Part shown: in pieces, positions 33,762 to 63,461 of the stretch | Layout of the letters: every line of letters begins with the position of its first letter | Numbering within the stretch: position 1 is the first letter of the stretch | From: Formosa sp. PL04 | Lineage (GTDB): Bacteria; Bacteroidota; Bacteroidia; Flavobacteriales; Flavobacteriaceae | Direction: 5' to 3' | Assembly: GCF_033447105.1 (NCBI RefSeq) | Contig: NZ_JAWQUN010000002.1 | Coordinates: forward strand, 416,856-480,855 | Length of the DNA stretch: 64,000 nucleotides | Position numbers and translations under genes: made by a program | Notes under the pieces: generated by a model | Database searches by the model: none | The model's input: only the letters and a program-made list of their open reading frames with translations | Told to the model about the DNA's origin: nothing

Positions 33762-33764
33762 GGT

Positions 33765-35936: not shown

Positions 35937-36026
35937 AAAAAAAGCCAACTATAAATAGTCGGCTTTCTCTTACTGTGCGGGCGGGGAGACTCGAACTCCC
36001 ACACCGCGAGGCACTAGATACTAAGT
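35937..36026 (-). repeat. Copy B: terminator hairpin plus the 3' ~51 nt of tRNA-Leu(TAG), a truncated att-type direct repeat of 63341-63430
   Basis: Matches the tRNA-Leu region with 3 mismatches. Lacks the D-arm and the 5' acceptor stem. Confidence 0.8.
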
Positions 36027-36185
36027 TCTTAAAAATTGCATATCAAAAAATAGCAAAAAACACTAAAAGCCACTTTTTCAGTCGTTTAATATTTTTACAC
36101 TAACATATAACGTTATATGGCAGTATAAAAAGTGTTACCCATGTGTTACCCCTTTTTTATTACCTTTAAGTAAACACTGAAAATT

Positions 36186-36930
36186 ATGGCTACCTTAAAA
36201 ACAGTTTACATAGCAAAAAAGATACTAAGGGAGAAATCATTTATCGATTAGCTTTACGACTTAATGTAAATTAAAAACGCAGTTACTATCACCTAGGCCA
36301 AAATATTGAACCTAACCATTGGGATGATCATGCCCAAAAAGTAAAAAGCAAACATTCGAAACACAAACAAATCAATAGACTAATTCGAAAAAAATATGAT
36401 GAAGTAGAAGACATTCTTTTCAACCTGGAATCGTCAAAACAAAAATATACAGCTAAAATGGTTATTGATTCTATTAGAAATAATAAAAGGACTCAATCCT
36501 TTTTTGATTTAGCAGAAGAGCATATAGAGGATCTAATAGGGCTAACAATTATAATCGCGCTATTTCAGACAACAGTAAGATTAATAGAATAAAAGAATTT
36601 TCAAATGGCAAGGATTTTACTTTTGAAGATATTGATGAATCCCTTCTGAAAAAAATGAAAATTTACTTACCAACGACCTCAAAACTTTCAGAACGTTCAA
36701 TAATGAATCTTTTTGTATTAATTCGATTACTGTATAATAATAATGCCATTCGTAAGAAAATAGTTGATCAAAAATTTTATCCCTTTGGTAGAGATAAAAT
36801 AAGAATAAAGTCTCGACAAATGCTTCAAAAACTATATAGACATACTAATCTTAGTACAACAATAGGTTACCAAGGCAATTTCACCCATAAAAACACAGAT
36901 GATGCATTGGATTTAATTACGTCTTTTTAA
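36186..36930 (+). pseudogene. Decayed Bacteroidota-type tyrosine integrase (N-terminal arm/SAM-like part, broken by stops and frameshifts, catalytic domain missing)
   Basis: ATG 36186 gives MATLKTVYIAKKILREKSFID*. Further frames read ..IEPNHWDDHAQKVKSKHSKHKQINRLIRKKYDEVEDILFNLESSKQKYTAKMVIDSIRNNK.., typical of CTnDOT/IntN-like integrase N-termini. Adjacent to the partial tRNA repeat. Confidence 0.55.
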
Positions 36931-37029
36931 ACTTAAATAAGATTACATCTAAATCATTTATAATAACTTAATCTCCCCCAAATCACCATAACTTATCTGC
37001 GTATGGATCCTGTGCTGTTTTTATAGTAT

Positions 37030-37434
37030 TCAGATAGATAAACGTGAAGTAAAAACAGTATAGGACGCATTTATGGTTTTGATTTGAAATTGAAGTTTTA
37101 AATATTCTTTTATTCTCCGCTTTTCTTCAAATCTCACCTTCTGTTCCATAATTGGTTTTCTGGAGAACTCTGCCTCTTCAATAAGTGCCTGCAACATCTC
37201 AACTGTTGGTTTGGTTTGATGCTTCTTTATGTTCTTCAACATCGCAATCATACCATTCATTCGTATTTTAAACACATTTTCCAAAGTCTGAATTTTGGAA
37301 TCTAGAGAATCTAATGGAGTCATCTCATTTCTTCCAAAAAATTCTAACATTATTATTAACGTCATAGATTTTGATTTACCAATATACTTACAATATCTGT
37401 TGAATTTTTTAGCTACTGAGATTTTTATACTCAA
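37030..37434 (-). CDS. Hypothetical protein, possibly a remnant of mobile-element cargo
   Basis: ORF only. No recognisable motifs. Confidence 0.25.
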   Translation of the reverse strand: MSIKISVAKKFNRYCKYIGKSKSMTLIIMLEFFGRNEMTPLDSLDSKIQTLENVFKIRMNGMIAMLKNIKKHQTKPTVEMLQALIEEAEFSRKPIMEQKVRFEEKRRIKEYLKLQFQIKTINASYTVFTSRLSI

Positions 37435-37797
37435 GTTAGCAAATCGTTATTTTTCGTGTCCTTTATCCATTTTTGCGTGAATTTAGTGTTGATTTTACTG
37501 GACTCAGAGCCATTTTGCGTGAAAAACATTCAGATTTTTAATAAATTAAAATCTCAAACAAAATATAAATAATTGATTTTACAGTTAATTACAGGTAAAT
37601 AAAGACAACATAACCTCGCGCAGCGGGTTACCCTCTTGCTACTCACTTTCGTCCCATCCAAAGTGGGACAAACCGTTTACCTTTTTTAAACTACTACTAG
37701 ATTTTAATTTTTGTATTAATTCTTCTCATTTTAAGATGTTTATTGTTTTAATCTTGAAGTTTCTTTACTAAAATCATTATTTGATCAAAAATAATTT

Positions 37798-39186
37798 TCA
37801 ATATAAAAAATCGACACTATTCTTAGACATAACGTCTTTAAACCAATGCGCAGATTTTTTTGGAAAACGTTCTAATGTTTCGAAATCAACATAGTGCAAT
37901 CCAAATCTTTTCTCATACCCCAACGCCCATTCAAAATTATCCATAAACGACCACGCAAAGTATCCTTTAAGTTTTACGCCTTCATTAATTGCTTCATTAC
38001 AAGCCTTTAAATAACTTTGATAAAAATCTATGCGCTCTTGATCATTCACTTCACCATCAACAATCTTATCTGCATAAGCACAACCATTTTCTGTGATATA
38101 TATATTCGGACTGTCATAGCGATCATTAATCCAATGTAATAATTTTTTACAACCCCATGGCACTACTGCCCATTGCATAAGTGTAAGGTCCCAACTTTTA
38201 TCTAAGGATAAATCGACATCTTGGTCTTCAGAAATACCGCCATTACCATAAATACTTCCTTCTTTAATAGTTCCATCAGAGTTTGAAGCATACATTGTGG
38301 TGTAGTGATTCAATCCAAAAAAATCTGAGCTTCCTTTGAGCATATTTTTCTCATCTTCAGAAAAAACAGGTAATCTATCGCCTAAACGTTCTTTCATAAC
38401 TTTTGGATAATCGCCTTTATAAACAGGATCAGCAAACCATGCTAAGAAAAACTCAAGTGCTCGTTCAGCAGCTTCCTTATCTTCCTTACTATTTGTAAGT
38501 GGCTCACGCCAATCGCAATTATTAGTAATACCTATTTGACCATTTTGACTGCTATATTTATTTCGATATAATTGAACAGCTTTCCCATGCGCCAAAATTA
38601 AATTATGACCAGCTAAGTAAGGTGCAGATGTAGATACTCTCCCAGGGGCAAAAGCACCTTGACCATATCCTAAAATAGCAACCACCCAGGGTTCATTTAA
38701 TGTAATCCAATTTTTCACACGATCTCCAAACCGCTCAAAGCATACATCGGCATAAGCTTCAAAATAATCTGATATAGAATCTCCCAACCAACCATCATCT
38801 TCCAGTTGAAGAGCTAAAGGCAAATCCCAGTGATACAATGTAACCCAAGGTGTAATATCTGCTTCAATTAAAGCATCTATGAGGTTATTATAAAAGGCAA
38901 TACCTTTTTCATTAATAGCTTCTTTTCCTGTTGGCATAATCCTTGACCAAGCAATTGAAAACCTATAGGCCTTTACACCCATATTCTTCATAAGTTGAAT
39001 ATCTTCTTTATATTTATTGTAGTGATCACATGCAATTTCTCCAGTTTCTCCATTTTGGATTTTTCCAGGAATACTCGAAAAAGCATCCCAAATAGATGGT
39101 CCTTTTCCATCCGTAGTAGTTGCGCCTTCAATCTGATATGACGAGGTCGCTGTACCCCAAACAAAATCTACAGGAAATTTTTTCAT
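37798..39186 (-). CDS. GH1 beta-glucosidase
   Basis: Signature motifs VDFVWGTATSSYQIEGA, ITLNEPW (acid/base) and YITENGCAY (nucleophile). Confidence 0.9.
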   Translation of the reverse strand: MKKFPVDFVWGTATSSYQIEGATTTDGKGPSIWDAFSSIPGKIQNGETGEIACDHYNKYKEDIQLMKNMGVKAYRFSIAWSRIMPTGKEAINEKGIAFYNNLIDALIEADITPWVTLYHWDLPLALQLEDDGWLGDSISDYFEAYADVCFERFGDRVKNWITLNEPWVVAILGYGQGAFAPGRVSTSAPYLAGHNLILAHGKAVQLYRNKYSSQNGQIGITNNCDWREPLTNSKEDKEAAERALEFFLAWFADPVYKGDYPKVMKERLGDRLPVFSEDEKNMLKGSSDFFGLNHYTTMYASNSDGTIKEGSIYGNGGISEDQDVDLSLDKSWDLTLMQWAVVPWGCKKLLHWINDRYDSPNIYITENGCAYADKIVDGEVNDQERIDFYQSYLKACNEAINEGVKLKGYFAWSFMDNFEWALGYEKRFGLHYVDFETLERFPKKSAHWFKDVMSKNSVDFLY

Positions 39187-39203
39187 TATAATTATATTTT
39201 TTT

Positions 39204-40814
39204 TTAAACGTGTTCTTTTAATTGTGCTGCTCTTTTAATATTTAAATCTGAGGTAATCACATCCATTTTTTTCTTATTAAGCGGATAGAGCATCATGACC
39301 GCAGCGGCAACAATGGCTACAATTGCGGGTACCCAACTCATAAGCATTATCATACCTGGAATAGCCCCTTCAATGGCTACTTGATTTTGACCATTATAAT
39401 TAAAATAAGAAAGTACAAAACCAATAATAGCACCAGCAATACCTCCTCCAAATTTTGTAGCAAGAGATCCAGCAGAATATATTAGACCTGTTGCTCGTCG
39501 TCCATTTTTCCATTCTGAAAAGTCGGCTGCATCTCCTAACATTACAAATAATAGTGTTGGAAACATTGCTGAAGCGGCTTCGGATATAATACCTATAATA
39601 AAAATTGCTGTAGTATCTTGAGGCCCGCAAAATACAAACAAACAATTAACTGCAGCTGAAAAAATTAAAGCATAAATAAATAATTTCTTTTTACCAAATA
39701 TTTTACCTAGAGGCGCTACAAGCATGGCACCACCAATAGATGCTAAAGTTAATGCCACCATGAAACTAGCTGCTAAAAGCTCTTGATGCAAATAATGTGC
39801 AAAATAGATAACAACAATACCTTGCTTTATAGCCGTATAAATATTGAACAATAAGCCTATTACTAATAAAACCGCCCATGGTTTATTTCTAAAAAGTTGC
39901 TTTAAGTCCTTTTTAATATCGCTTTTTTGATCTTTAGGCGCTTTAACTCGTTCTTTAGTTGTTAAGAATGTGATAATCATAAAAATGGCCAAAAACACCG
40001 ACAATAAATACATTGATTTGCTATAACCTTCTTTTTGATTAATAATGGTTATGCGGTCTGCATTTAGGTCATCAATATCAGTGACAATAAAACGATATTC
40101 TTTATTAGCTTCCATTTGGAAACTTTTACTCGCAGTTGCATCATTATTTAAAACGGTATTATCTGCCCAAGCAAATTTACCAATCCCTTTGTCTAATTTT
40201 ATACGAGCACTTTCCACATTTAAAGGTGCAGAAACAACGACTTCATAATTTGTAGAATCAGGAATATTGTAGACGTTAATTTCCGGATTTACATTCCCAA
40301 AAAAGACAACTAAATATAAAAGAGCACCCTGTACTAACATACCACCAGCAAAAGCACCAACCATTCGGTAAGACCCCAGACTAGTGCGTTCTTTATCGTC
40401 TCCAGTCATAACAGCCATAAGCGCTCCATAGGGAATATTATTAGCTGTATAAATAAGGGTGAATAATATATATGTGATATAAGCGTAAACAATTTTACTT
40501 TGTTCTCCCATTTCGGGAACTGTAAATAAAAGTGATAAAATAAGCGCTAATGGTACTGCCGTCCATAAAATCCATGGTCTAAATTTACCGTATTTTGAAT
40601 TGGAACGATCTCCAATAACCCCCATAAGAATATCACTAATACCATCGCTAGAACGTGCAACTAACATTAATAATCCAACAGACACGGGGTCTAAACCAAA
40701 AACATCGGTATAGAAAATGAATAAAAAAGTCGAGACACCTCTCCACGCAATATTAGCTGCCCCATCACCTAAAGCATATCCTATTTTTTCTTTAATTGAA
40801 ATTTTGTTTGTCAT
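39204..40814 (-). CDS. GPH-family (MelB-like) glycoside:cation symporter carrying a ~100-aa hydrophilic insertion
   Basis: 12-TM MFS/GPH layout. The loop NVYNIPDSTNYEVVVSAPLNVESARIKLDKGIGKFAWADNTVLNNDATASKSFQMEANKEYRFIVTDIDDLNADRITIINQ sits between TM halves. Confidence 0.75.
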   Translation of the reverse strand: MTNKISIKEKIGYALGDGAANIAWRGVSTFLFIFYTDVFGLDPVSVGLLMLVARSSDGISDILMGVIGDRSNSKYGKFRPWILWTAVPLALILSLLFTVPEMGEQSKIVYAYITYILFTLIYTANNIPYGALMAVMTGDDKERTSLGSYRMVGAFAGGMLVQGALLYLVVFFGNVNPEINVYNIPDSTNYEVVVSAPLNVESARIKLDKGIGKFAWADNTVLNNDATASKSFQMEANKEYRFIVTDIDDLNADRITIINQKEGYSKSMYLLSVFLAIFMIITFLTTKERVKAPKDQKSDIKKDLKQLFRNKPWAVLLVIGLLFNIYTAIKQGIVVIYFAHYLHQELLAASFMVALTLASIGGAMLVAPLGKIFGKKKLFIYALIFSAAVNCLFVFCGPQDTTAIFIIGIISEAASAMFPTLLFVMLGDAADFSEWKNGRRATGLIYSAGSLATKFGGGIAGAIIGFVLSYFNYNGQNQVAIEGAIPGMIMLMSWVPAIVAIVAAAVMMLYPLNKKKMDVITSDLNIKRAAQLKEHV

Positions 40815-41447
40815 TTCACATGTTTTAATTTAAATACATACACTAATTGCCATATTTGTTCTGATATATCCTCCTTTTTCATTTCAGGTCGTTTTAAAAA
40901 AAATAGATTGCCAATTAAGAGATTCAAACAATTAACCAAAACAAACTAAAAAAGCAACTAACAATAGAAATGAACTAATTTTAATGGCTGTTTTTTTAGA
41001 CATGGTTTATTTTATAAAATGGAGCTTAAGACTAATGTATCTATTCAAAGGTAATTCAACACATGAAGTAATTATTATACTATTTTATCATTAATGCACT
41101 AATTTTAATACATCTGCCCTGTTTGTTTTGAAATACAGCCTTTTTTAGCTTTAAAAAAAGGAATGTACACATACTAATAATCACTATTGAATATGGACAC
41201 TTAATAAGGAATGTAAAAAACCTCTGAAATTAACTCATTAAGCGTATTCGATACAGGTAGGAAACAACTACACTTTAACAGCATATTTACACGAATCATT
41301 TAAATCAATTTCATAAAACAACCGCTGTTAAAAACCTTAATCTCAGTTTTTGTATTGACCAAATGTCATCAAAATAAACAACAGGCACTTAAACTAAAAA
41401 ACAACCAAAATAATATTGAGTGTTTTAAAATTCTAAAAAACACTTAT

Positions 41448-44400
41448 CTAATTAACCTTTATAAACTGTAAGAAATCATCATTTTTAACAGCAATGATAT
41501 AATCTTCATTTTTAATTTTAATTTCCCCTAAATCTTTTACATCTCCAGTGGCATAAAAACCACTTTTTGCTGGAGGAATTGGGTTAAATGTTCCGTTTCC
41601 ATTTCCTTCAAAATAATAACCAAAACCGCCATCGTTTCTTGGGGTTTCAATCTCTGAAACATATAAATTTCCCGCAATTACAAAATCTAATTTTTCATCA
41701 TTGTTAAAATCTTCTACCACAATTTGATTGATACTTGACAATTGTGCTTCAATTGGTAATTGATGAATTACAAACTCAGTTTCTTTATTTTCTAAATAAA
41801 TACTCGCAAATGATTTCACTTGATAATGCAGTGCATTCTCTAACTTTTCTTTAGAATAAACATCTACCAAAGTTGCTTCAGAAAAGCTGTCGTAGTTTTT
41901 AAACTTCGATTTAATACTTGGTATTTGTTGGGAAGAACATGAGCGACCTCTTACCGGAAATTGTTTACCTTCATTGTAATAACTCAACACTATATCACTT
42001 TGATTATTTTGGTCGAAATCATTTACATAAATATCAAAAGTTTCACTATCATTTGCCTGATACTTGTAATTTAAACCGTTGTTTCCAACAATATAATCCA
42101 TGTCTCCATCATTGTCAAAATCACCTTCCTTGATGCTCCACCACCATCCGGCAGTTGCATCGGTTAAACCCAATTCTTCTGATGTATTTTGAAAACCATT
42201 TTCTGTATTTTTAAAAACTTTTATAGGCATCCATTCTCCAACAATAATAATATCTAAACGCTCATCATTATTATAATCGGTGATTACAGCACTTGTAGCC
42301 ATTCCTAAATTGAAAAATTCTTTTGCTAATTTTTCAGTAGCATCTTCAAATTTGACTTCGTTTTTGCTGCTTTTATTCAACAATAAATAAGTGTTTGCTG
42401 GCGACGGATATTTTCCTGGAACTTGACGTCCTAAAACCAATACATCTTGTTTTCCATCGTTATCAAAATCGGCATGGCATACTTTTGAGCCACTTGTTTT
42501 CATCACTGGCAATGCATTCTCTGCCTTTGTAAATTGTCCTTTTCCGTTGTTTAAATACAAGCGATCTTGTAACATATCAGATTCTGGAGCAAACTCATAA
42601 CCTCCGCTTACCACATACAAATCGTTATCTCCATCATTGTCTGCATCAAAAATTAATGCGCCAATATCTTCACTGTATTTATCTGTTTTGAAAGCTTCCA
42701 TTTCTTGCAATTCAAAAGAAGTTGTTGTTTGAAAAAACAAACTTCCTAAATGATCAAAGGAACCACCTACATAAAAATCATCCAAACCATCATTATTTAA
42801 ATCTCCAACTGCTAAAACTGGTCCAAATTGCGACATCTTATGTGGCATTAAAACCTGCGTTAAAAAGTCATCATTCACGTTTTCAACATGTTTAAACACT
42901 GGTAATTCTTCATTTTCAGTAGTTTCAAATAACGTATTTGGCTTTTCTTCTAAAGTAGTTTCAGCTACAGCATTTGCTTGTTGCAATGTTAACAATTGAT
43001 TGATGGCTACATTTTGTAATTTTTCAACTTTTCCATCATTCCAAACAACTTTTAATTCATCTATATTTTCAGCTTTGTTTAAACCGAAATGTAATTGTGG
43101 TGCTACTGAAGATTGAAATCCACGAGACAAGGTTAATTCTTGTAGTTGAGTTTGACCTTCTGTAGTTACATACACTCTATTTCCTAAACCAAATTTATTA
43201 GCTGAAGTTCCTTCAAAATTAATGGTGATAAAATTGTTATTATCCGCATTTGTATTTTCGTAAACAGAAGCAACCTCATCCACATTATTGGTGATAATTT
43301 CTAAATCTCCATCATTATCTAAATCGGCATAAGCAACTCCATTAGAGAATCCTTCATGTTCAATTCCCCAAGCTTCATTTGCTTTTTCAAACGTAAGGTT
43401 TCCTTTATTTTTGAAAATAAAATTGTCTATTTTTTCAGAAGGAATGAGTAAGCTTTTTTCTAAATCAGATAAATTAGTGCCATCATTTTTAGAATAGGTA
43501 TTAAAAAAGTCTCGGTTATTTACCTCTCTTCTAATACCATTGGTAATGAATAAATCTTTATTTCCATCGTTGTCAAAATCAGCAAAAAGTGGTCCCCAAC
43601 TCCAATCGGTTGATGACGTTCCTGTTAATCTTGAAATGTTTGAAAACTGTGGAATGTCTTTTAAATAAACACCTGTATTTAACTGCATACAATTGTGCAT
43701 GTATTGGTAGTGAAATCCAGACAATACGGTTTCCCAAAACAATTGTGGATTCATACTTGCCATATTTGCTTTTTGTCGACGATTATTATTGGCATCCATA
43801 TCTGCCTGAAAAATATCTAAGTTTCCATCGTTATTAAAATCTGAAACATCTACACCCATGCCGTAGAACGCAGTTTGAGCTGTCGCTTCTTTAACGACTT
43901 CTTTAAACGTTCCATCTTGGTTATTGATGTAAAAATAATCTGGAATACTATAATCACTTGAAATGTAAATATCTTGCCAACCATCGTTATTTATATCTGC
44001 AGTGACTACTCCATATGAAAAACCATAACTTTTTACACCTGCTATTTCTGAAACATTTGTAAACGTATCGCCGTCATTCCGATATAATTTATCAGATTCT
44101 GCATCAGTAACTCGTAGCATTTTATTCTTATACTCAAAATTAGAACTGTTTACATTAGATTTTGGATAATTTGCCACATACAAATCTAAATCGCCATCAT
44201 TATCATAATCAAAAAAAGTTCCTTGTGTTGAATTTGCACTATCAGCCACACCGTATTCTTGTGCCTTTTCGGTGAAAGTACCGTCACCGTTATTTATGAA
44301 AAGTTGGTTTTCAGTGTTATCAAACATTCCTGAAACCGAACAATAAACATCTAAAAAACCATCACCATTTACATCGGCCATAGTAGTACCTGTGTACCAA

Positions 44401-44738: not shown

Positions 44739-44843
44739 AAAAATCTACTATTAAAAGTATAAAATTTGGTTATAGCTAAAAAGCAACGTGTTTTTAGTAC
44801 ACGTTGCTTTTAGGACTTAAAACATATTCAAATTTTCTAAATA

Positions 44844-46379: not shown

Positions 46380-46399
46380 ATTTATCTAAATGTTTTTTA

Positions 46400-49405: not shown

Positions 49406-49521
49406 AGATATTTAGTTTAATTAATAATTAGTTTGCGCTAAACTCTGTTTTTTTCAGTAAGCTTCGCAATTCAATATTACTTATAATGTTAATTAATTGT
49501 TAATACAATTTCGTCATTTGT

Positions 49522-50442: not shown

Positions 50443-50446
50443 ATTA

Positions 50447-50479
50447 AAAAAACTCTCAAAATAAATTTTGAGAGTTTTA
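50447..50479. terminator. Bidirectional hairpin terminator between convergent genes (aaaactctcaaaa..ttttgagagtttt)
   Basis: 12-bp inverted repeat flanked by A- and T-runs. Confidence 0.65.
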
Positions 50480-50505
50480 AACAAACTCTAACCAAACAAA
50501 AAACA

Positions 50506-52975
<2,470 letters not shown>

Positions 52976-53307
52976 AGTTCTATTAGTTTGGTCTATTTTC
53001 TTAAATATTTCTTGTATTGGTTAAAACAACACGTTCTAAAATTCAAATAAAATAGTCATTGGTTTATCAGTTAATTTCAGCAGAACATAAAAAGGATATG
53101 CTTCATTCCTCAAAAGTAATTCACCTCATCACTACATTTTGATACTATTTTGTCATATTCTAAAAGGAATTATTCTTTAAAAACACCTTGTGATAAAATC
53201 GTTTACTAAAATGTAATTATTGTATTAAGTAGTGGGTTCTTATACGTTTAAGTTTACATTCAGTAAAAAACCAGTTCTATATAAGGAGCTTTTTATTTTA
53301 ATTATTT

Positions 53308-54195: not shown

Positions 54196-54206
54196 ACTAC
54201 CAAACC

Positions 54207-56459
54207 ATGAAAAAATATTTTTTAATTCTTATCATCTTCACTTTTATTAGTTGTGAAACTAAAACAGAAAATACAACTAAAACTGAAGATTCTTCTGAAC
54301 AATTTATTTCTGACTTATTAACCAAGATGACCTTGGAAGAGAAAATTGGTCAAACTAGTTTAAAAGGAACTTCAAGCAGAGTAAAAGGTGCGCTTCCAGA
54401 AGCATTGAAAGAAGCTGTTAGAAAAGGTGAAATTGGAGCATTTTTAAATGTTATGAATACCGAATATGTTGATGAATTACAACGCATCGCTGTAGAAGAA
54501 AGTCCAAACGGAATTCCTTTAATTTTTGGAAGAGACGTTATTCACGGTTTTAAAACTATTTTTCCAATTCCAATCGGTCTTGCCGCGACTTGGAATGCGG
54601 ACATTGCAAAAAATTCTTCTAGAATTGCAGCTATTGAAGCAACATCGGTTGGTGTGCGTTGGACATTTGCTCCCATGTTAGATATTGCCCGCGACAGTCG
54701 TTGGGGACGTATTGCGGAATCTCCAGGAGAAGATCCTTATTTGGCATCCGTTTTAGGACAAGCATATATTGAAGGATTTCAAGGTGAAAATTTAAATAAC
54801 CCAACAAGTATGGCGGCTTGTGCTAAACATTTTTTAGCGTATGGCGCTGCTATTGGAGGAAGAGATTATAACACTGCTGATATTAGTGAACCTTTATTAA
54901 GAAACGTGTATTTACCACCTTTTGAAGCCGCTTTTGAAGCTGGTGCTGCTACAGTAATGACTTCCTTTAACGAGTTAAATGGGATTCCAGCATCTGGAAA
55001 TGAATTTTTACTAACGGAAGTATTAAGAAATCAACTTCATTTTGATGGGTTTGTAGTAAGTGACTGGGATTCTGTTATAGAAATGATTGCGCACGGATAT
55101 GCAAGTGATGAAAAACACGCTGCTGAATTAGCCTTTAACAGTGGTTTAGATATGGAAATGGCTAGTAAAACGTATGATGATCATTTAGAACAATTATTGG
55201 AAGAAGGAACAGTTTCTATGGATCAATTAGATTTTTATGTAAAAAATATTTTACGCATTAAATATCGTTTAGGTCTATTTGATAACCCAACCAGAAGAAA
55301 AACAGAAGCTTCAGAATTTTACAAACCAGCATATTTAAAAGAAGCTAAAAGTGCTGCTATAAAAAGTAGCGTGCTTTTGAAAAATGAGCACGTATTACCA
55401 TTAAAAAATGAAACGAAAGTAGCGGTTATAGGTCCGTTAGCAAATGCAACGCGTGAACAACTAGGAACGTGGTCTTTTGATGGTGAAAAAGATAAAACCA
55501 TTACACCTTTGCATACTTTTAAAAATGAAAATGTAAACTTTCAGTTTGCTGAAGGATTAACGTATAGTAGAGATAAATCTACAAGTGGTTTTGCCGAAGC
55601 CATAAAAATTGCAAAAGCAGCTGATGTCATTTTATTTTTTGGTGGTGAGGAAGCAATTTTATCTGGAGAAGCACATAGTAGAGCAAATATTGATTTACCT
55701 GGAGCACAAGAACAATTGTTAAATGAATTAGAAAAAACAGGAAAACCAATTGTCCTAATTATTATGGCTGGAAGACCAATAACTATTACCAATATTATAG
55801 ACAATGTAGATGCTGTTTTAATGGCTTGGCATCCTGGAACTATGGGTGGACCGGCAATATATGATATGATTTTCGGATTGCAAGAACCTGGCGGAAGATT
55901 ACCTGTTTCTTGGCCAAAAACCGCTGGACAATTACCTTATTTCTACAATCACAAAAATACTGGAAGACCTGCAGATAGCCTTTCTTTTATTCAAATGGAC
56001 GATATCCCTATTGAAGCTTGGCAAAGCTCCTTAGGAAATGATTCTCACTATTTAGATATTGGTTTCACTCCTCATTTTCCTTTTGGTTACGGACTTGGAT
56101 ACACGAAGTTTTCTTATGAAAATATTCAAATTTCAAAAGACACCATCAATTTCACAGAAGAACTTCAAATTAAAGCTATTGTAAAAAATATTGGAGAAAG
56201 AGCTGGAACTGAAACTGTACAATTATATGTCCGAGATCTTATTGGAAGTATTACACGACCAGTAAAGGAATTAAAAGGATTTGAACAAATCACCCTAAAT
56301 CCTGGTGAACAAAAAGAAGTTGTATTTACCATTTCTTCTGAAAATTTAGAATTCACCAATCATAAATTAATAAAGGCGGCGGAAGAAGGTGACTTTACTA
56401 TTTGGGTTGGACCAAATTCAGCAAAAGGATTACAATCTTCATTCTATTTAAAAAAATAA
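54207..56459 (+). CDS. GH3 beta-glucosidase (BglX-like lipoprotein)
   Basis: Start at MKKYFLILIIFTFISCE. GFVVSDWD nucleophile motif. C-terminal fibronectin-like domain. Confidence 0.85.
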   Translation: MKKYFLILIIFTFISCETKTENTTKTEDSSEQFISDLLTKMTLEEKIGQTSLKGTSSRVKGALPEALKEAVRKGEIGAFLNVMNTEYVDELQRIAVEESPNGIPLIFGRDVIHGFKTIFPIPIGLAATWNADIAKNSSRIAAIEATSVGVRWTFAPMLDIARDSRWGRIAESPGEDPYLASVLGQAYIEGFQGENLNNPTSMAACAKHFLAYGAAIGGRDYNTADISEPLLRNVYLPPFEAAFEAGAATVMTSFNELNGIPASGNEFLLTEVLRNQLHFDGFVVSDWDSVIEMIAHGYASDEKHAAELAFNSGLDMEMASKTYDDHLEQLLEEGTVSMDQLDFYVKNILRIKYRLGLFDNPTRRKTEASEFYKPAYLKEAKSAAIKSSVLLKNEHVLPLKNETKVAVIGPLANATREQLGTWSFDGEKDKTITPLHTFKNENVNFQFAEGLTYSRDKSTSGFAEAIKIAKAADVILFFGGEEAILSGEAHSRANIDLPGAQEQLLNELEKTGKPIVLIIMAGRPITITNIIDNVDAVLMAWHPGTMGGPAIYDMIFGLQEPGGRLPVSWPKTAGQLPYFYNHKNTGRPADSLSFIQMDDIPIEAWQSSLGNDSHYLDIGFTPHFPFGYGLGYTKFSYENIQISKDTINFTEELQIKAIVKNIGERAGTETVQLYVRDLIGSITRPVKELKGFEQITLNPGEQKEVVFTISSENLEFTNHKLIKAAEEGDFTIWVGPNSAKGLQSSFYLKK

Positions 56460-56465
56460 AGGATT

Positions 56466-58352
56466 ATGATTATCATAATAATGGGGGTTAGCGGTTGTGG
56501 AAAAACTACGATTGGAAAACTTTTATCTAAAAAAACAGGAATTAATTTTTACGATGCTGATGATTTTCATCCTTCGGAAAATATTGAAAAAATGAAAAAC
56601 AACATGCCTTTAACAGATGTTGATAGAACACCTTGGTTACTAACGCTATCAAAAAAACTAAAGGAATGGGATCAAACAACTGGAGCTATTTTAGCGTGTT
56701 CAGCCTTAAAAGAATCGTATCGTGAGCTCTTAAATTCAGAAATTGAAAATCCGTTATGGATATATCTTTCTGGCTCTTTTGAACAAATAAAAGAACGTTT
56801 AGAATCTCGAGACAATCATTATATGCCTTCTTCCCTATTAAAATCTCAGTTTGAAACCTTGGAAATTCCAACTTATGGACTTCATATTCCTATTGAACAA
56901 ACGCCAACAACTATTACAAATACCATCATCTCAAATACAAAACGAATGAATAAAGCAACTATTGGAATTATTGGATTAGGCGTTATGGGAAAAAGCCTCA
57001 GTTTAAATATTGCTGAAAAAGGTTTTCCTATAGCTGTTTATAATCGTAAAGAAAAAGGTGAAGAAAATATTGTTTCAGAATTTTTACAAGAGAATAAATC
57101 TTTTGAAAACTTAGTTGGATTTTCCAATATTCAAGACTTTATTAATTCCGTAGAAAAACCACGACAATTTTTTTTAATGATAAAAGCAGGTAAAGCAATT
57201 GATGCTGTTATTGAACAGATAATTCCTTATTTATCTAAAAACGACATTATAATTGATGGTGGAAATTCGCATTATTTAGATACTGAAAAAAGATATAATT
57301 ATTTAGCTACGAAACAGATTAACTTTATTGGTTGTGGTGTTTCTGGTGGTGAAGAAGGCGCCAGAAAAGGACCTTCTATTATGCCTGGAGGAAACCCTGA
57401 AAGCTATAAAATAGTTGCTCCTATTCTTGAAGCTATTTCTGCAAAGGACTCTCAAAATAATCCTTGCTGTACATTTATTGGAAATAAAGGTGCTGGCCAT
57501 TTTATTAAAATGGTCCACAACGGAATTGAATATGCAGAAATGCAATTATTAGCAGAATTGTATGGATTACTGTCTTCAACAATGAACAATATTGAAATCG
57601 CCAATCTTTTTTCAACTTGGAACAAAACAGATCTAGCGAGCTATTTATTAGAAATTACAATTGAAATTCTACGTAAAAAAGAAGGCGACAACTATCTTTT
57701 AGAGTCGATTTTAGACAAAGCAGGAAATAAAGGAACCGGATCTTGGTCTAGTAAAGCCGCTCTAGATTTAGGAGTTCCAAATACCATGATGGCTTCGGCT
57801 GTTTTTGCTAGATATATGTCTTCATTTAAAGAAAAACGAATAGCATTATCTAAAAAATTAACTATTAAAAAAAGTGCTCCCCAAGAATTAAACATCGCTG
57901 CTATTGAAAACGCTTATCGATTTGCTCGTATTGTAAATCACCATCAAGGTTTTGATTTAATGCAAGAAGCTTCAACAACATATTATTGGGATTTAAACTT
58001 ATCTGAAATAGCAAGAATTTGGACAAACGGCTGTATTATTCGCTCCAATTTCATGGGAAATTTAGTTGTATTATTCAAACAAAATGAATCCATTTTAGAC
58101 CATGCTACACTATTCGATGATTTAAATAATTCCGAAGATGAACTAAAAAAACTCATTGAAATGGGGTTAACCAATCGAGTTCCTTTAGACACTTTTTGGG
58201 CTTCTTATAACTATTGGATATCGATGACTTCTGAAAATTTACCTGCAAATTTAATTCAAGCCCAACGTGATTATTTTGGGGCTCATACATATCAACGAAA
58301 AAATGATACGAGCAATCAATTTTTTCATACAAACTGGCTGAAAAATGATTGA
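56466..58352 (+). CDS. Fusion protein: gluconokinase (GntK, ~165 aa) plus decarboxylating 6-phosphogluconate dehydrogenase (Gnd, ~460 aa)
   Basis: N-terminal GVSGCGKTT...FHPSENIEKMKNNMPLTDVDRTPWL (GntK). Then IGLGVMGKSLSLNIAEKGF..GCGVSGGEEGARKGPSIMPGG..GAGHFIKMVHNGIEYAEMQ (Gnd). Confidence 0.85.
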   Translation: MIIIIMGVSGCGKTTIGKLLSKKTGINFYDADDFHPSENIEKMKNNMPLTDVDRTPWLLTLSKKLKEWDQTTGAILACSALKESYRELLNSEIENPLWIYLSGSFEQIKERLESRDNHYMPSSLLKSQFETLEIPTYGLHIPIEQTPTTITNTIISNTKRMNKATIGIIGLGVMGKSLSLNIAEKGFPIAVYNRKEKGEENIVSEFLQENKSFENLVGFSNIQDFINSVEKPRQFFLMIKAGKAIDAVIEQIIPYLSKNDIIIDGGNSHYLDTEKRYNYLATKQINFIGCGVSGGEEGARKGPSIMPGGNPESYKIVAPILEAISAKDSQNNPCCTFIGNKGAGHFIKMVHNGIEYAEMQLLAELYGLLSSTMNNIEIANLFSTWNKTDLASYLLEITIEILRKKEGDNYLLESILDKAGNKGTGSWSSKAALDLGVPNTMMASAVFARYMSSFKEKRIALSKKLTIKKSAPQELNIAAIENAYRFARIVNHHQGFDLMQEASTTYYWDLNLSEIARIWTNGCIIRSNFMGNLVVLFKQNESILDHATLFDDLNNSEDELKKLIEMGLTNRVPLDTFWASYNYWISMTSENLPANLIQAQRDYFGAHTYQRKNDTSNQFFHTNWLKND

Positions 58353-59688
58353 TTTCACACTTATTTCAGCCGTATGTATTGGAATTGCAGTCTTACTTTT
58401 TTTAATATTAAAACTGCGAATTCAAGCTTTTATCGCTCTGTTAATAGCAAGTATTATTGTTGGTATTATTTCAGGAATGCCTCCCATGGAAATTATTGCA
58501 ACTATGCAAGAAGGTATGGGAAACACCCTTGGTTTTGTAGCTGTAGTTGTAGGTTTGGGAGCTATGTTTGGAGCTATTTTAGAACATTCAGGTGGTGCAG
58601 AAGCTTTAGCGAATTACTTACTGAAAAAATCTGGCGAAAAGAATGCTTCTTGGGCATTGGTATTCACTGGGTTCTTTATTGCAATCCCCGTGTTTTTTGA
58701 TGTCGCTTTTATCATTTTAATTCCATTGATTTATTCCCTTCAACGAAAAACTAAAAAATCATTATTACTATACGGAATTCCATTACTTGCCGGATTAGCC
58801 ATTACACATGCTTTTATCCCTCCAACTCCAGGACCCGTAGCGGTTGCCGATATATTAAATGCAGATTTAGGTTGGGTGATTTTATTCGGTTTTATAACTG
58901 GAATCCCTACAGCCATAGTATGCGGTCCATTATTTGGAAAATACATTGCTAAAAAAATCTATATTGAAGCTCCTAAATTGACGCTAGAAACCCAAGAAAA
59001 AACTTCTTTTCCTTCGGTTTATCTAATCATTTCAATTATTAGTATTCCTATTCTTTTAATAGTTAGTAATACGGTAATTAATAGTCCGCTAGTTTCCAAT
59101 GAAACCATTCCTTTGCACGTTAAAGAATGGCTACAAATGATTGGGCACCCTTTTTCAGCATTAATAATTGCTAATTTAATAGCTTGGTATGCCTTGGGAA
59201 TAAAACAAAATTTCAGCAAAGAATCTTTATTAAAAATCACCACAAAATCAATGGAACCTGCAGGAATTATAATTTTACTAACGGGTGCTGGAGGTGTTTT
59301 TAAACAAATATTGGTAAATACTGGAACGGGTGAAATGTTGGCAAATTATTTTGCAAATGAAGGTGTTAGCATTCTTTTATTTGCATTTTTAGCAGCAGCA
59401 ATAGTCCGTATTTTACAAGGATCTGCAACAGTTGCAATGATAACTGCTGCAGGAATTACAGCGCCATTAATCGCTTTAAACACTTCAGAAATAGACAAAG
59501 CTTTATTAGTAATTGCAATTGCTTCTGGAGCTTCAATTATGTCGCATGTAAATGATAGCGGATTTTGGTTGGTAAGTAAATATTTAGGGATGAATGAAAA
59601 ACAAACGTTTAGAAGTTGGACGGTTATGACTACCCTATTAGCAATTACGGGTTTTGCAACGGTTTCTGTTTTATCATTGATTTTTTGA
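58345..59688 (+). CDS. GntP-family gluconate:H+ symporter
   Basis: About 12 TM helices. GntP-like glycine-rich segments. 8-nt overlap with gntK-gnd. Confidence 0.75.
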   Translation: MIDFTLISAVCIGIAVLLFLILKLRIQAFIALLIASIIVGIISGMPPMEIIATMQEGMGNTLGFVAVVVGLGAMFGAILEHSGGAEALANYLLKKSGEKNASWALVFTGFFIAIPVFFDVAFIILIPLIYSLQRKTKKSLLLYGIPLLAGLAITHAFIPPTPGPVAVADILNADLGWVILFGFITGIPTAIVCGPLFGKYIAKKIYIEAPKLTLETQEKTSFPSVYLIISIISIPILLIVSNTVINSPLVSNETIPLHVKEWLQMIGHPFSALIIANLIAWYALGIKQNFSKESLLKITTKSMEPAGIIILLTGAGGVFKQILVNTGTGEMLANYFANEGVSILLFAFLAAAIVRILQGSATVAMITAAGITAPLIALNTSEIDKALLVIAIASGASIMSHVNDSGFWLVSKYLGMNEKQTFRSWTVMTTLLAITGFATVSVLSLIF

Positions 59689-59781
59689 AAACTATTTTTA
59701 TAAAATCATATTACAACTTGTTAAATATGGCTTATTATTATCGCTATTTAATCTTTAATTTTACAATTAATAAACTTTTAA

Positions 59782-62034
59782 ATGAAAAAACACGCAATTC
59801 TTCTAACAGTTACATTAATAATGCTCTCTTTTTATTCTTGTAAAGAGAAAAAAACAGAATCTATATCTGAATCACTCAAAACCGAAATTCCGAAAGAAAA
59901 TTTCACACCGCTCCCTTTTGATGTTTCAAAATTTGATACAAAAATAGATTCCCTAATGGCACTTATGACCATTGAAGAAAAAATTGGAATGCTTCATGGA
60001 AATAGTATGTTTGCTAATGGAGGTGTTCCACGCTTAGGAATTCCCGAATTAAAAATGGCAGATGGTCCATTAGGAATTCGTGAAGAAGTTTCAAGAGATA
60101 GTTGGGCTCCTGCTGGTTGGGACAACGATTTTGCAACTTACTATCCTGCTGCAGGTGCTGTAGCTGCAACTTGGAATCCAGATTTGTCATATACCTTTGG
60201 GAACAGTGTTGGACAAGAAGCTCGTGCACGTGATAAAGATATGCTGTTGTCTCCAGCCATCAATATTATTAGAACACCTTTGGGTGGTCGTACGTATGAA
60301 TATTTTACAGAAGATCCTTTTTTAAATAAAAAATTAGCCGTGCCTTTTATCGTTGGAATTCAAGATAATGATGTCATGGCTTGTGTAAAACATTTTGCTG
60401 TAAACAATCAGGAAACCAACCGTGGAACTGTTGACGTACAAGTTGATGAACGTACGTTACAAGAAATCTACTTACCTGCCTTTAAAGCTGCTGTCACAGA
60501 AGCAAATGCTTACAGTTTAATGGGTGCTTACAACAAGTTTAGAGGGGATTATTTATGTGAAAACGACTTGATGTTAAACAAAATATTAAGAGATCAATGG
60601 GGGTTTCAAGGCATTGTAGTTTCAGATTGGGCTGCCGTTCATTCAACTGTAAAATCCTTAGAAAATGGGTTGGATATTGAAATGGGAACTAGAAAACCTT
60701 TCAATGACTATTTTTTAGCTGAACCATTACTTGCTGCTTATAAAGCTGGTGAGATTTCAGAAGAAGAAATTAACATACACGTAAAACGTATTTTAGGCGT
60801 ATTATTCCAAGTGAAAGCTATTGACGGAACCGATAGAGTAACAGGAAGTATTTCTACTGAAGCACATTTCCAAGATTCCTATGATGTTGCTGCGGAAGCC
60901 ATCGTTTTACTTAAAAATGAAAATAATGCGTTACCTCTAAAATTAGATGGTGTTAAATCTATTGCTGTTATAGGAAACAATGCGACAAAGAAAAACGCTT
61001 TAGCCGGTTTTGGTGCTGGTGTAAAAACAAAAAGAGAAGTAACACCTTTAGAAGGACTTCAAAACAGATTGCCGAAAGGAATTGAAATTCAATATGCTGA
61101 AGGCTATTTAGAGCGTTATTCTAAAAATGACAATGATCAAAAAACAGAAATTACGCTACATGGTCCAACTACGGTAAACGAATTGGATAAAACAAAATTA
61201 GAAGAAGCTTTGGTTGCTGCAAAAAATTCCGATATCGCTATTATTTTTGCAGGTTCTAATCGTGATTATGAAACAGAAGCTTCAGACCGTAACGACTTAT
61301 CATTACCATTTGGTCAAGAAGAATTAATTCAAAAAGTAATGGCTGTGAATCCAAATACAATTGTTGTTATGATTGCTGGCGCTCCTTTTGATATTGCGAG
61401 CGTAAAAGAAAATGCCCCTGCCTTAGTTTGGAGTTGGTTTAACGGTTCTGAAGGCGGAAATGCTTTGGCCGATGTTATTTTAGGAAACGTAAATCCTTCT
61501 GGTAAATTACCTTGGACCATGCCTAAAGACATCAACGATTCACCTGCACACGCTACCAATAGTTTCCCTGGTGATGAAGTTGTTGTGTACAAAGAAGAAT
61601 TTTTAGTAGGTTACCGTTGGTTTGATACGCAGAACATTGAACCTTTATATCCTTTTGGTTACGGATTATCTTATACTAATTTTGATTTTTCAGACCTTAA
61701 AACAGATAGTTCTGAATATCAGAAAGAGGATACTATTGAAGTGACATTCAACATTAAAAATACTGGAGATTTTGATGGTAAAGAAGTTACTCAATTATAT
61801 GTTTCAAATCCAAACTCCGCTATTAAAAGAGCTTCAAAAGAGTTAAAAGGTTTTCAGAAAGTATTTGTTAAAAGTGGTGCTACCGAAAAAGTTACAATCA
61901 CTTTACCCGTTAAAGAATTGGCTTATTTTGATGTCACTAAAAATGATTGGGCTGTAGAAGCAGGAACCTATATCTTGAAACTAGGGAATTCATCTCAAAA
62001 CATCATTACTGAGATACCTATTTTAATAAAATAA
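59782..62034 (+). CDS. GH3 beta-glucosidase (second copy, lipoprotein)
   Basis: Lipobox LSFYSCKEK. Motifs KMADGPLGIR and GIVVSDWAAV. Confidence 0.85.
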   Translation: MKKHAILLTVTLIMLSFYSCKEKKTESISESLKTEIPKENFTPLPFDVSKFDTKIDSLMALMTIEEKIGMLHGNSMFANGGVPRLGIPELKMADGPLGIREEVSRDSWAPAGWDNDFATYYPAAGAVAATWNPDLSYTFGNSVGQEARARDKDMLLSPAINIIRTPLGGRTYEYFTEDPFLNKKLAVPFIVGIQDNDVMACVKHFAVNNQETNRGTVDVQVDERTLQEIYLPAFKAAVTEANAYSLMGAYNKFRGDYLCENDLMLNKILRDQWGFQGIVVSDWAAVHSTVKSLENGLDIEMGTRKPFNDYFLAEPLLAAYKAGEISEEEINIHVKRILGVLFQVKAIDGTDRVTGSISTEAHFQDSYDVAAEAIVLLKNENNALPLKLDGVKSIAVIGNNATKKNALAGFGAGVKTKREVTPLEGLQNRLPKGIEIQYAEGYLERYSKNDNDQKTEITLHGPTTVNELDKTKLEEALVAAKNSDIAIIFAGSNRDYETEASDRNDLSLPFGQEELIQKVMAVNPNTIVVMIAGAPFDIASVKENAPALVWSWFNGSEGGNALADVILGNVNPSGKLPWTMPKDINDSPAHATNSFPGDEVVVYKEEFLVGYRWFDTQNIEPLYPFGYGLSYTNFDFSDLKTDSSEYQKEDTIEVTFNIKNTGDFDGKEVTQLYVSNPNSAIKRASKELKGFQKVFVKSGATEKVTITLPVKELAYFDVTKNDWAVEAGTYILKLGNSSQNIITEIPILIK

Positions 62035-62063
62035 AAAGTATTCTTTAACCTAATTCATTAAAA

Positions 62064-62112: not shown

Positions 62113-62448
62113 GTTTTCTAATAAATCGAAAAAGAAAGAAGCTTACTCAACTGCCTTTTTTTCGTGATGCAAGCATATATTAGTAGAATCTTAAAAACAT
62201 ATAAATAATTATTACGATGAAATATATAGCGACAATCATACTTTTTTTCCATAATTCAAATATAATTATTACGGACTCTTAAAAACAGTACCTTTAAAGG
62301 TAGATATTCCATTTTTGTATGTCCACATTTCATACAGGTAAAATCGTCTTGCCATTTTATTTTTACTAAATAGGCTTAACAAGCATCGTCATTAGGTAAT
62401 TCTTTTATAAAGATCGGGATGCTTGGCGTAGTATTCTTGTCATAAAAA

Positions 62449-62715
62449 TTATTTAGTAGCTCCTGTTTTACGAAGTTCCTTGTCAAAATAAGGAAAGTAC
62501 TTTTCTAACGTAATTAATTGCTCTGATTTTGTGTTCTGATCGGATTTAAACAGCCTATTTAACTCCTCAAACGTCATGGCAGACACATCGTAATTGGTAA
62601 GCTGATACCGCCTAAAAAAAGCAATATACTTGGTTATTGTATTGAGAGATAACCCGAGAATTAGACTGATTTTTCGCATATCTATTTGTGTATTGGCCAC
62701 GATCTTTTTTAACAA
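62449..62715 (-). pseudogene. Short HTH-domain ORF, probably the N-terminal fragment of an IS (IS21-like?) transposase
   Basis: DMRKISLILGLSLNTITKY looks like an HTH. Only 88 aa. Adjacent to three ~24-bp tandem repeats. Confidence 0.3.
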
Positions 62716-62757
62716 AAAAAGACCTTTATGACCTTACAAATAGAACCGATCTTTAGT

Positions 62758-62829
62758 GGTTCACTTTCATCCGCTGAAGGTGGTTCACTTTGACCCGCTC
62801 AACTATGCTCACTTTAATCCGCCGTGGGT
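62758..62829. repeat. Three tandem ~24-bp direct repeats (GGTTCACTTTCATCCGCTGAAGGT / GGTTCACTTTGACCCGCTCAACTA / TGCTCACTTTAATCCGCCGTGGGT)
   Basis: Seen directly. Reminiscent of multi-repeat transposase-binding ends or iterons. Confidence 0.7.
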
Positions 62830-63340
62830 GGTATACTATGCCCGGTTTTTGCAATGTTACGCTTGAACTAAAAAACATTGTTTATAACCAAAATCAATTG
62901 TATGTGATTCTAAAAATCACCAACGATTCTAGTTTGGATTATAATATTAATTACCTAAACACAGCTATAGTTACCCGTAAAAAAGGTAAAAACAAATCTA
63001 TGCAAAACCTAAATGTAGCACCTAACTCTGTTTATGATATGCCCAACCGTGTTTTAAAGAAACTTTCTCGAACCGTTGTTTAAGTGCTTCCTAAATTTTC
63101 TATTAGTAATGATAGATTCGTACACTTTACTCTTAATGAAAGTTCTGGGGAGCGTAATTTGAGGTTGAAGGTTTCAAATAGGGTTGTTAATGATCCGGAT
63201 TAAAATTGACTTTTGATTAATCGAAAAATTGAAAACTAATATATAACAGAGCCAATTGAAGTCATTTGACTACAAAATTAACTGATAAGTGTTAAAATTC
63301 AAAAAAAGCGTAATTGTTGTACCTATGTTGTACCAAGCAT

Positions 63341-63376
63341 AAAAAAAGCCGACTATAAATAGTCGGCTTTCTCTTA
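63341..63376 (-). terminator. Copy C: perfect 9-bp-stem hairpin (agccgacta/tagtcggct) plus a 7-T run (minus strand), the terminator of tRNA-Leu
   Basis: Minus-strand reading: tRNA end, ..agccgactatttatagtcggcttttttt. Confidence 0.75.
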
Positions 63377-63379
63377 CTG

Positions 63380-63461
63380 TGCGGGCGGGGAGACTCGAAC
63401 TCCCACACCGCGAGGCACTAGATCCTAAGTCTAGCGTGTCTACCAATTCCACCACGCCCGC
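63380..63461 (-). tRNA. tRNA-Leu (anticodon TAG), type II with a long variable arm. CCA is not encoded.
   Basis: Reverse complement GCGGGCGTGGTGGAATTGGTAGACACGCTAGACTTAGGATCTAGTGCCTCGCGGTGTGGGAGTTCGAGTCTCCCCGCCCGCA. The 7-bp acceptor stem pairs (GCGGGCG/CGCCCGC). Anticodon loop CTTAGGA. T-arm GGGAGTTCGAGTCTCCC. Confidence 0.9.

Follow-up and report, generated by a model that had tools for sequence, protein, structure and literature searches.

The subject of this analysis is a 64,000-nucleotide stretch of the genome of Formosa sp. PL04 (contig NZ_JAWQUN010000002.1), called the window here, to which all positions refer unless another locus is named. Between two copies of the 3' half of tRNA-Leu(TAG), the window contains a 27.3-kb segment (36027 to about 63340) that includes a polysaccharide utilization locus (PUL). 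We consider this segment to be, with a probability of roughly 0.8, the eroded remnant of mobile DNA that integrated site-specifically in the anticodon-loop region of tRNA-Leu(TAG) and carried the PUL. The repeat, an empty site, relics of mobility genes, and a junction architecture found across a family of related elements were all directly observed. The segment has the makeup of a tRNA-integrated island and of a PUL and is at least partly the relic of a conjugative element (TraN and BfmA fragments); with only fragments remaining, it is not a functional integrative and conjugative element (ICE). A literature search found no paper that names Formosa sp. PL04.

The features at the two ends of the segment are as follows.

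35937-35974, minus strand: distal terminator hairpin, displaced and originally chromosomal (from repeat alignment and folding)
35975-36026, minus strand: displaced tRNA-Leu(TAG) 3' half that reaches from the 3' end through the anticodon loop; outer attR-like junction (from repeat alignment)
36132-36150, plus strand: tandem motif GTGTTACC-cat-GTGTTACC, which precedes the start of the integrase by about 35 bp
36186-36930, plus strand: tyrosine integrase pseudogene with Arm-DNA-bind_5 (PF17293) and Phage_int_SAM_5 (PF13102) and no PF00589
37030-37434, minus strand: gene for a BfmA/BtgA-family mobilization protein of 134 amino acids (NCBIfam NF041200), an intact open reading frame (ORF) convergent with the integrase
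62404-62853, minus strand: IS21-family relic, consisting of the IstA N terminus and the left terminal region
62856-63200, plus strand: C-terminal half of the conjugative transposon protein TraN (PF13595/DUF4138, TIGR03780), with one internal stop
63316-63334, plus strand: tandem motif GTTGTACC-tat-GTTGTACC, separated by 6 bp from the terminator; arm, on the tRNA-proximal side, of an element with the second type of motif
63341-63461, minus strand: functional tRNA-Leu(TAG) (63379-63461) and its terminator (63341-63378) (from ARAGORN and folding)

The tRNA-Leu(TAG) repeat and an unoccupied site

The sole tRNA that ARAGORN called in the window is tRNA-Leu(TAG), at 63379 to 63461 on the minus strand. 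BLASTN and MAFFT align 35937 to 36026 with 63341 to 63430 at 88 of 90 positions (E value, 6e-43), which bears out the repeat described in an earlier note on this DNA, with two mismatches in place of the three counted there (a at 35948 against g at 63352, and a at 36020 against c at 63424). Each 90-bp copy comprises a terminator hairpin with a U-tract, read on the minus strand, and the 3' 52 nt of tRNA-Leu(TAG); the two hairpins fold at -17.8 and -19.8 kcal/mol, with z scores of about -7. Identity between the copies ends at 63430, which is tRNA position 32 and lies one base 5' of the anticodon loop (63423 to 63429). The arrangement is that of a tRNA-gene island, with the 3' part of the tRNA repeated directly at both ends and one of the copies within the intact tRNA. 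At 63341 to 63461, only the 5' part of the tRNA is original; the incoming element contributed the 3' half and the terminator.

On the left, the segment is flanked by a block of six genes, whose products are DUF3686 AAA and SPFH/flotillin proteins, an unknown protein, PspA, a CesT_Tir_1 protein, and a helix-turn-helix (HTH) protein. The HTH gene (35153 to 35908) is the one adjoining the distal repeat, and its product matches a protein of Formosa sp. PL04 at 100% identity. An M20 peptidase gene forms the right flank, and tRNA-Leu(TAG) stands head-to-head with this gene in most of 80 Flavobacteriaceae genomes. A genome scan anchored on the M20 fragment returned 80 loci, with a best match of 81% amino acid identity, and in none of these were the left-flank genes found within 10 kb. 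Homologues of the HTH protein led instead to the empty site in Pseudotamlana agarivorans (L082), where the terminator, tRNA-Leu(TAG), and the M20 gene come immediately after the six-gene block, with nothing in between. The flank proteins there are 69 to 95% identical to their counterparts in the window. The comparison with relatives proposed in the earlier note has thus produced an unoccupied site with the same flanks, in a different genus. Because the same flanks adjoin there, the 27 kb is an insertion relative to the P. agarivorans arrangement. At one variable position, the a at 35948 of the distal terminator is shared with the terminator of P. agarivorans, an agreement that fits the distal copy being the original chromosomal one.

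Other contexts of the HTH gene were seen as well. In Formosa algae (L081, 10760 to 10958), the next features are a terminator and a sequence that looks like the 3' end of another tRNA (TGGAGAAGATGGCTCTCGAACC), after which the contig ends; ARAGORN called no tRNA in this interval. In Tamlana agarivorans (L092, 10965 to 20759), the gene after the HTH gene opens a different glycan cluster (GH43, sulfatases, DUF6786, esterase, and GH95), so the DNA right of the HTH gene is variable and rich in genes for carbohydrate-active enzymes (CAZymes) in several genera. Further left in the window itself, 223 to 7218 and 14167 to 20979 hold a starch-type PUL and a cluster of DUF2126, transglutaminase, and circularly permuted ATP-grasp genes; the parts of the PUL are a SusC fragment at the window edge, SusD, SusE/F, and a GH13 amylase with a sorting tail of the type IX secretion system.

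Relics of mobility genes at the two ends

The integrase relic begins 160 bp inside the distal repeat, where a tRNA island would have its integrase, beside the end. Over its two surviving N-terminal segments it is 67 to 70% identical to intact 408-amino-acid integrases, and 87% of the reconstructed query aligns with intact integrases of 406 to 411 amino acids at 68 to 70% identity. Its reading frame is broken by an in-frame stop near 36274 and a frameshift near 36538. In addition, residues 212 to 371, approximately, are deleted, so that some 160 residues of the catalytic domain, among them the catalytic Arg, the Lys, and the HxxR motif, are missing. The native C terminus is kept, and the roughly 35 residues that remain of it contain the Tyr region. 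The pseudogene reported in the earlier note is therefore real and inactivated, as claimed there, but is not purely N-terminal. Since the integrase lacks the catalytic Arg/Lys/HxxR region, autonomous excision is not expected. The neighboring BfmA gene matches NF041200 with an E value of 5.5e-21 (74.6 bits, against a cutoff of 24).

At the tRNA-proximal end, the HTH transposase fragment and the three 24-bp repeats noticed earlier are present and could be identified as parts of an IS21-family element, namely, the N terminus of IstA (residues 1 to 115 of approximately 514, at 62404 to 62715) and the terminal region with its three repeats (62716 to 62853). The IstA fragment is 53% identical to the annotated istA of Arenibacter algicola pSMS7 (tblastn against plasmids), and the end region is 81% identical to that of the A. 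algicola IS21, repeats included. The rest of istA, istB, and the second IS21 end are absent from the window. Neither Pfam nor NCBIfam gave a match for the 88-amino-acid HTH ORF of this relic, and the 24-bp repeats, which Tandem Repeats Finder did not report, were recovered by a repeat search (period, 24) and by homology to the IS21 end.

Next to the IS21 end lies the TraN fragment, which spans positions 130 to 237 of the 245-position PF13595 profile (E value, 1e-16; 61.5 bits) and also matches TIGR03780 (E value, 3e-17). Its N-terminal half was severed at about 62853 by the IS21 end. Of the traA-to-traQ gene set of a CTnDOT-like ICE, this C-terminal half is all that was found, and no other Tra-family domains turned up in Pfam scans of ORFs of at least 80 amino acids. 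Likewise, tblastn with the putative relaxase-like and TraG-like ORFs of locus L057 (see below) detected no relaxase or coupling protein in the window, as an ICE would have. Two occurrences of the tandem motif were found in the window, one close to either end of the segment, where 0.01 would be expected by chance. The BfmA gene, the TraN fragment, and both tandem motifs (36132 to 36150 and 63316 to 63334) had been missed in the earlier account of the island.

Related elements at tRNA-Leu(TAG)

The architecture of the distal junction recurs around intact homologous integrases. In Maribacter, the terminator comes first, then a 52-nt tRNA-Leu 3' half that breaks off after CCTAAGT; about 100 bp further on lies GTGTTACCcatGTGTTACC, and the integrase ATG lies about 35 bp beyond it, the same order as around GTGTTACC-cat-GTGTTACC in the window. 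In a metagenome scan, integrases at least 59% identical to P0246 were found at 27 loci; 25 of these loci have the GTGTTACC-N3-GTGTTACC motif at the position equivalent to that in the window, and 24 have a tRNA-Leu 3' fragment, usually of 52 nt. A tRNA-Leu fragment of 52 nt, or similarly cut, stands beside the integrase in L088 to L091 and in 24 metagenome loci among L094 to L118, and this integrase family is thereby found at the same target and break point elsewhere. An empty site and the same junction beside intact homologous integrases at about 25 loci bear out the claim that the segment was inserted at tRNA-Leu(TAG) by site-specific integration. The tandem 8-mers are putative arm-type integrase binding sites, and strand exchange probably took place in or next to the anticodon loop.

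The two motif variants differ in their associations. Complete elements with GTGTTACC at both ends are L098 (8.9 kb) and element 1 of L088/L094. Pairs of GTTGTACC stand upstream of another integrase clade, 40 to 51% identical to P0246 (L088 int2, L122, L124, and L127), and also at the tRNA-proximal end in L019, L024, L038, L057, L071, and the window. Behind its GTTGTACC motif, L057 has ParB-like, SSB-like, relaxase-like, and TraG-like ORFs, as read from translations only, and tblastn located a BfmA homologue (34 to 35% identity) near the relaxase-like and TraG-like ORFs at tRNA-Leu. No BfmA, relaxase, or Tra homologue was found in any of more than 20 elements of the window's integrase type. In L088/L094, both types are intact and stacked at tRNA-Leu, the GTGTTACC island being distal and a middle copy of the terminator and tRNA half lying between them. 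A hybrid motif, GTTGTACCtatGTGTTACC, occurs in L108.

The family carries varied cargo. In L100, a TARA metagenome contig (9790 to 20335), the tRNA-Leu 3'-half junction has beside it an intact integrase of the window's type, and directly after this integrase comes a fructan PUL with genes for a PfkB kinase, SusD, SusC, GH32, and an MFS sugar transporter. Other members carry SusD, AraC regulators, a TonB-dependent receptor, an esterase, metal efflux, and restriction-modification genes.

Variants of the target were noticed among the M20-adjacent loci. In L024 (8700 to 8856), L057 (9744 to 9894), and L071 (9747 to 9903), the element beside M20 supplies a whole, more divergent tRNA-Leu(TAG), and the host 5' half from the anticodon loop is left as a 34- to 40-nt fragment between the new tRNA and M20. 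Maribacter sp. Asnod2-G09 (L010, 1157 to 9872) has a SusC-SusD-FG-GAP/ASPIC set beside tRNA-Leu(TAG), with no recognizable tandem motif; its FG-GAP protein is 49% identical to that of the window.

One element or two

The earlier note described one domesticated island. The dead integrase and the intact PUL agree with that description, but the end motifs belong with different integrase clades. Because the motif variants at the two ends go with different clades, the segment probably derives from two elements, and within the overall model we lean toward a fused remnant of two elements in tandem.

It is possible, though we think it unlikely, that one integrative (conjugative) element, its two arms bearing different motifs, introduced the PUL and afterward decayed in place. 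The window has one flanking repeat pair and one integrase relic, with no inner att copy or second integrase relic; the divergence of BfmA (minus strand) and TraN (plus strand) is what the mobilization and transfer modules of one Bacteroidota ICE would show; and L108 has a hybrid motif. All 25 motif-bearing integrases of the window's clade, however, have GTGTTACC at the integrase end, both complete elements of the clade (L098 and element 1 of L088/L094) have it at the tRNA end as well, GTTGTACC goes with a different integrase clade, and the more than 20 elements of the window's integrase type lack BfmA, relaxase, and Tra homologues.

In the mechanism preferred here, a tyrosine integrase with an arm-binding N-terminal domain would have recombined an element site with tRNA-Leu(TAG). 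In that site, a tandem 8-mer, the terminator, the tRNA 3' half, and the anticodon loop would be followed, after about 100 bp, by another tandem 8-mer and the integrase gene. The terminator and 3' half of the element would rebuild a working tRNA (63341 to 63430), and the original 3' half and terminator of the chromosome would be pushed 27 kb away (35937 to 36026). Under the two-element history, the first arrival would have been an integrase-plus-cargo island of the GTGTTACC type, whose end and dead integrase survive distally. The second would have been a Bacteroidota-type conjugative element of the GTTGTACC type, from which the proximal arm, the TraN fragment, and probably BfmA survive. The two would have been stacked in tandem, as they are, intact, in Maribacter. 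Insertion of an IS21 element into traN and several deletions, at least one of them associated with IS21, would then have eliminated nearly all transfer genes along with the second integrase and the inner junction. The part left intact would be the cargo, a PUL for beta-glucosides and cello-oligosaccharides with a cytoplasmic GH94 together with a gluconate module (GntP and GntK-Gnd), in a segment that would now be fixed in place.

The PUL and gluconate genes

The cargo consists of a PUL core (37798 to 53000) and an accessory block (53308 to 62034), assigned with Pfam and, in the accessory block, Pfam and NCBIfam.

37798-39186, minus strand: GH1
39204-40814, minus strand: MFS_2/GPH transporter
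41448-44738, minus strand: FG-GAP/ASPIC protein
44844-46379, minus strand: SusD
46400-49405, minus strand: SusC
49522-50442, plus strand: AraC regulator
50540-52975, minus strand: GH94 cellobiose phosphorylase
53308-54195, plus strand: esterase
54165-56459, plus strand: GH3
56466-58352, plus strand: gluconokinase/6-phosphogluconate dehydrogenase fusion
58345-59688, plus strand: GntP permease
59782-62034, plus strand: second GH3

The gene list given in the earlier note is correct, and adjacent SusC and SusD genes together with GH94, GH1, two GH3 genes, an esterase, and an AraC regulator make this locus a PUL. All cargo reading frames are open, and most are full-length relative to their Lutibacter homologues. 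The GntK-type gluconokinase and the 6-phosphogluconate dehydrogenase form one protein of 628 amino acids, and the end of its gene overlaps the GntP start by 8 bp. GH94 matches the cellobiose phosphorylase 3qde over its full length with 1,348 bits. A pathway for cellobionate from oxidized cellulose, made up of GH94, GntK-Gnd, and GntP, was considered and rejected, as GH94 scores only 149 bits to 4zle, a putative beta-glycan phosphorylase. We take 4zle to be a cellobionic acid phosphorylase structure.

In Lutibacter PULs (L083 and L084), the GH94, AraC, SusC, SusD, FG-GAP, one GH3, and transporter proteins are 69 to 90% identical in amino acid sequence to those of the window, and the genes are partly colinear. 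SusD is 76% identical to Lutibacter proteins, compared with 60 to 62% to proteins of Formosa haliotis, Pseudotamlana, and Tamlana, a pattern of identities, not a phylogeny, that hints at transfer. No mobile-element genes were seen near the closest SusD homologues in metagenome contigs and Lutibacter. The earlier note held that a whole PUL had arrived by horizontal transfer. An intact PUL does lie between the ends, but we infer from this position, and not from composition, which is silent, that it came in as cargo. Such cargo is plausible in PL04 because L100, a relative with an intact integrase, carries its fructan PUL just inside the integrase.

We judge it improbable that the element or elements integrated without the PUL and that the PUL and gluconate genes came later, replacing transfer genes by, for example, IS21 rearrangement or chromosomal recombination. 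The PUL does occupy the place expected for traA to traM, between bfmA and traN, and abuts the truncated IS21; its composition is indistinguishable from that of the host; and the homologous Lutibacter PULs are chromosomal. Against a late arrival, there is one IS21 end only, and no second insertion sequence copy or target duplication brackets the PUL. In addition, L100 has its PUL directly inside the integrase end and other members carry SusD, AraC, and TonB-dependent receptor genes, so PUL-type cargo is normal for this integrase family.

A third terminator copy and a possible older scar

A third copy of the tRNA-Leu terminator hairpin, with the terminator only, lies downstream of the DUF3686 gene; the earlier note does not mention it.

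25891-25925, minus strand: terminator hairpin identical at 35 of 35 positions to 35939-35973

This copy folds at -17.1 kcal/mol. The equivalent spot in P. agarivorans (L082, 686 to 747) has a terminator and 15 to 17 nt, approximately, of the tRNA-Leu 3' end, up to the T-loop. The copy at 25891 to 25925 may thus be the outer scar left when older DNA integrated at this tRNA, and it fits such an event better than it fits a dispersed repeat. That the 90-bp repeat is itself a dispersed or duplicating intergenic repeat, close to mobile-element debris by coincidence, is very improbable: the third identical terminator, and the greater resemblance of copies within one genome than of orthologues, speak for it, but the third copy lacks the tRNA part and is explained by an older insertion at the same tRNA, since P. 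agarivorans keeps tRNA 3'-end bases there, while the 52-nt fragment ends at the same base as in about 25 independent loci beside an intact homologous integrase and a sister genus has the empty site.

The block of DUF3686, flotillin, unknown, PspA, CesT_Tir_1, and HTH genes (25891 to 35936) is itself bracketed by tRNA-Leu terminator copies, which suggests that it is an older island at the same tRNA and that accretion was in tandem. The block also occurs in other contexts, lacking tRNA-Leu pieces, in Tamlana agarivorans and Christiangramia forsetii, and PADLOC identified no known defense system in the DUF3686-PspA block. When the terminator copies of PL04 (25891 to 25925 and 35939 to 35973, 35 of 35 identical) and those of P. 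agarivorans (L082, 686 to 747 and 10933 to 10975) were compared, copies within a genome proved more alike than orthologues between the two, a likeness that points to probable gene conversion or repeated, recent integration.

A broader view, which we offer tentatively and think unlikely to hold in full, is that tRNA-Leu(TAG) in marine Flavobacteriaceae is a shared docking site of two cooperating element types and a hot spot for the accretion and exchange of PULs. Widespread small GTGTTACC islands, with an integrase and metabolic cargo including PULs and no transfer genes, may exist alongside GTTGTACC conjugative elements, and tandem stacking could let the islands be mobilized by, or fused into, a conjugative element. 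In this view, the DUF3686-flotillin-PspA block, with tRNA-Leu 3'-end scars on both sides, would represent an earlier layer.

Evidence against the proposed history

Several observations weigh against the integration history preferred here. The empty site was seen in one genome only, that of P. agarivorans, which is from another genus. The Formosa algae contig stops 199 bp past the HTH gene, and in Tamlana agarivorans the HTH gene is followed by other CAZyme genes and no piece of a tRNA. The element-supplied and displaced copies of the terminator and tRNA differ at only 2 of 90 positions, and the orthologous terminator of P. agarivorans differs from the PL04 copies at several; copies so nearly identical would imply either a very closely related donor or gene conversion. 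The identical terminator 10 kb to the left (25891 to 25925) touches a point raised in the earlier note, for which more 3' tRNA-Leu fragments elsewhere in the genome would have counted against integration. The homologous Lutibacter PULs are flanked by housekeeping genes and not by mobile-element genes, and the compositional contrast that the same note had looked to did not materialize, with GC content, GC skew, and tetranucleotide profiles showing no contrast between the segment and its flanks.

Other points concern the reconstruction of two elements. The rule that both ends have the same motif comes from two complete elements, both of the same type. Among the loci examined, none had an element of the GTTGTACC type that was complete, and L024 pairs GTTGTACC with an unrelated integrase of 348 amino acids. 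BfmA, which was seen only in the conjugative type and in none of the integrase-only elements, sits between the dead integrase and the PUL. The lost inner junction was searched for across the window as extra motif pairs, a second integrase, or more tRNA pieces, and none were found.

Relation to known elements and significance

Parallels in site use are the NBU1-type mobilizable elements of Bacteroides, whose tyrosine integrase recombines in tRNA-Leu, where the replacement 3' part leaves a direct repeat, and which have a small mobilization gene of the BtgA/BfmA kind, as does PL04. Unlike these, PL04 has a long identity block (about 88 bp, through the terminator), and its putative arm sites are family-specific tandem 8-mers. 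Sublocation classes of tRNA-gene integration, the anticodon loop among them, were reportedly laid out by Williams in 2002. The IS21 fragment resembles its family in the IstA N terminus and in a multi-repeat end that match the annotated A. algicola IS21; compared with a complete IS21, it keeps 115 of about 514 IstA residues and one end and is without istB.

PULs on ICEs are known from gut Bacteroidota, including the element with the porphyran PUL of Bacteroides plebeius and 47 SusC/D-containing PULs on mobile elements (PMC5849685; PMC6907783). Like those ICEs, the PL04 segment has a complete SusC/SusD PUL inside the element bounds, a Bacteroidota-type conjugation gene (TraN), and a tyrosine integrase. 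It differs in belonging to a marine member of the Flavobacteriaceae, in its beta-glucoside/cellobiose substrate, in probably being two fused elements, and in being a relic, whose integrase is dead, which keeps about half of one tra gene, and in which neither a relaxase nor a coupling protein was detected. In Elizabethkingia anophelis, ICEEaII is located at the 3' end of tRNA-Leu-CAA, and ICEEaIII pairs are separated by tRNA copies (10.1101/402107). These ICEs share with PL04 the 3' side of a leucine tRNA, many copies without an integrase, and tandem pairs with tRNA copies between them (10.1101/402107). In contrast, the isoacceptor in PL04 is TAG and not CAA, the Elizabethkingia ICEs keep 7 to 13 tra genes where PL04 has a fragment of one, and PUL cargo is not described for them (10.1101/402107).

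Because PUL transfer on integrative elements and tRNA-targeting ICEs are already established, the segment leaves current understanding unchanged. With junctions resolved to the base and an empty site for comparison, it is a clearly bounded example of a marine flavobacterium that probably acquired a beta-glucoside/cellobiose locus on mobile DNA and kept it while the genes for mobility decayed. What also emerges from the comparison is a family of tRNA-Leu(TAG)-specific elements with a shared junction and tandem motif and variable cargo (fructan PUL, metal efflux, and restriction), and this family could aid the annotation of mobile PULs in marine genomes and metagenomes.

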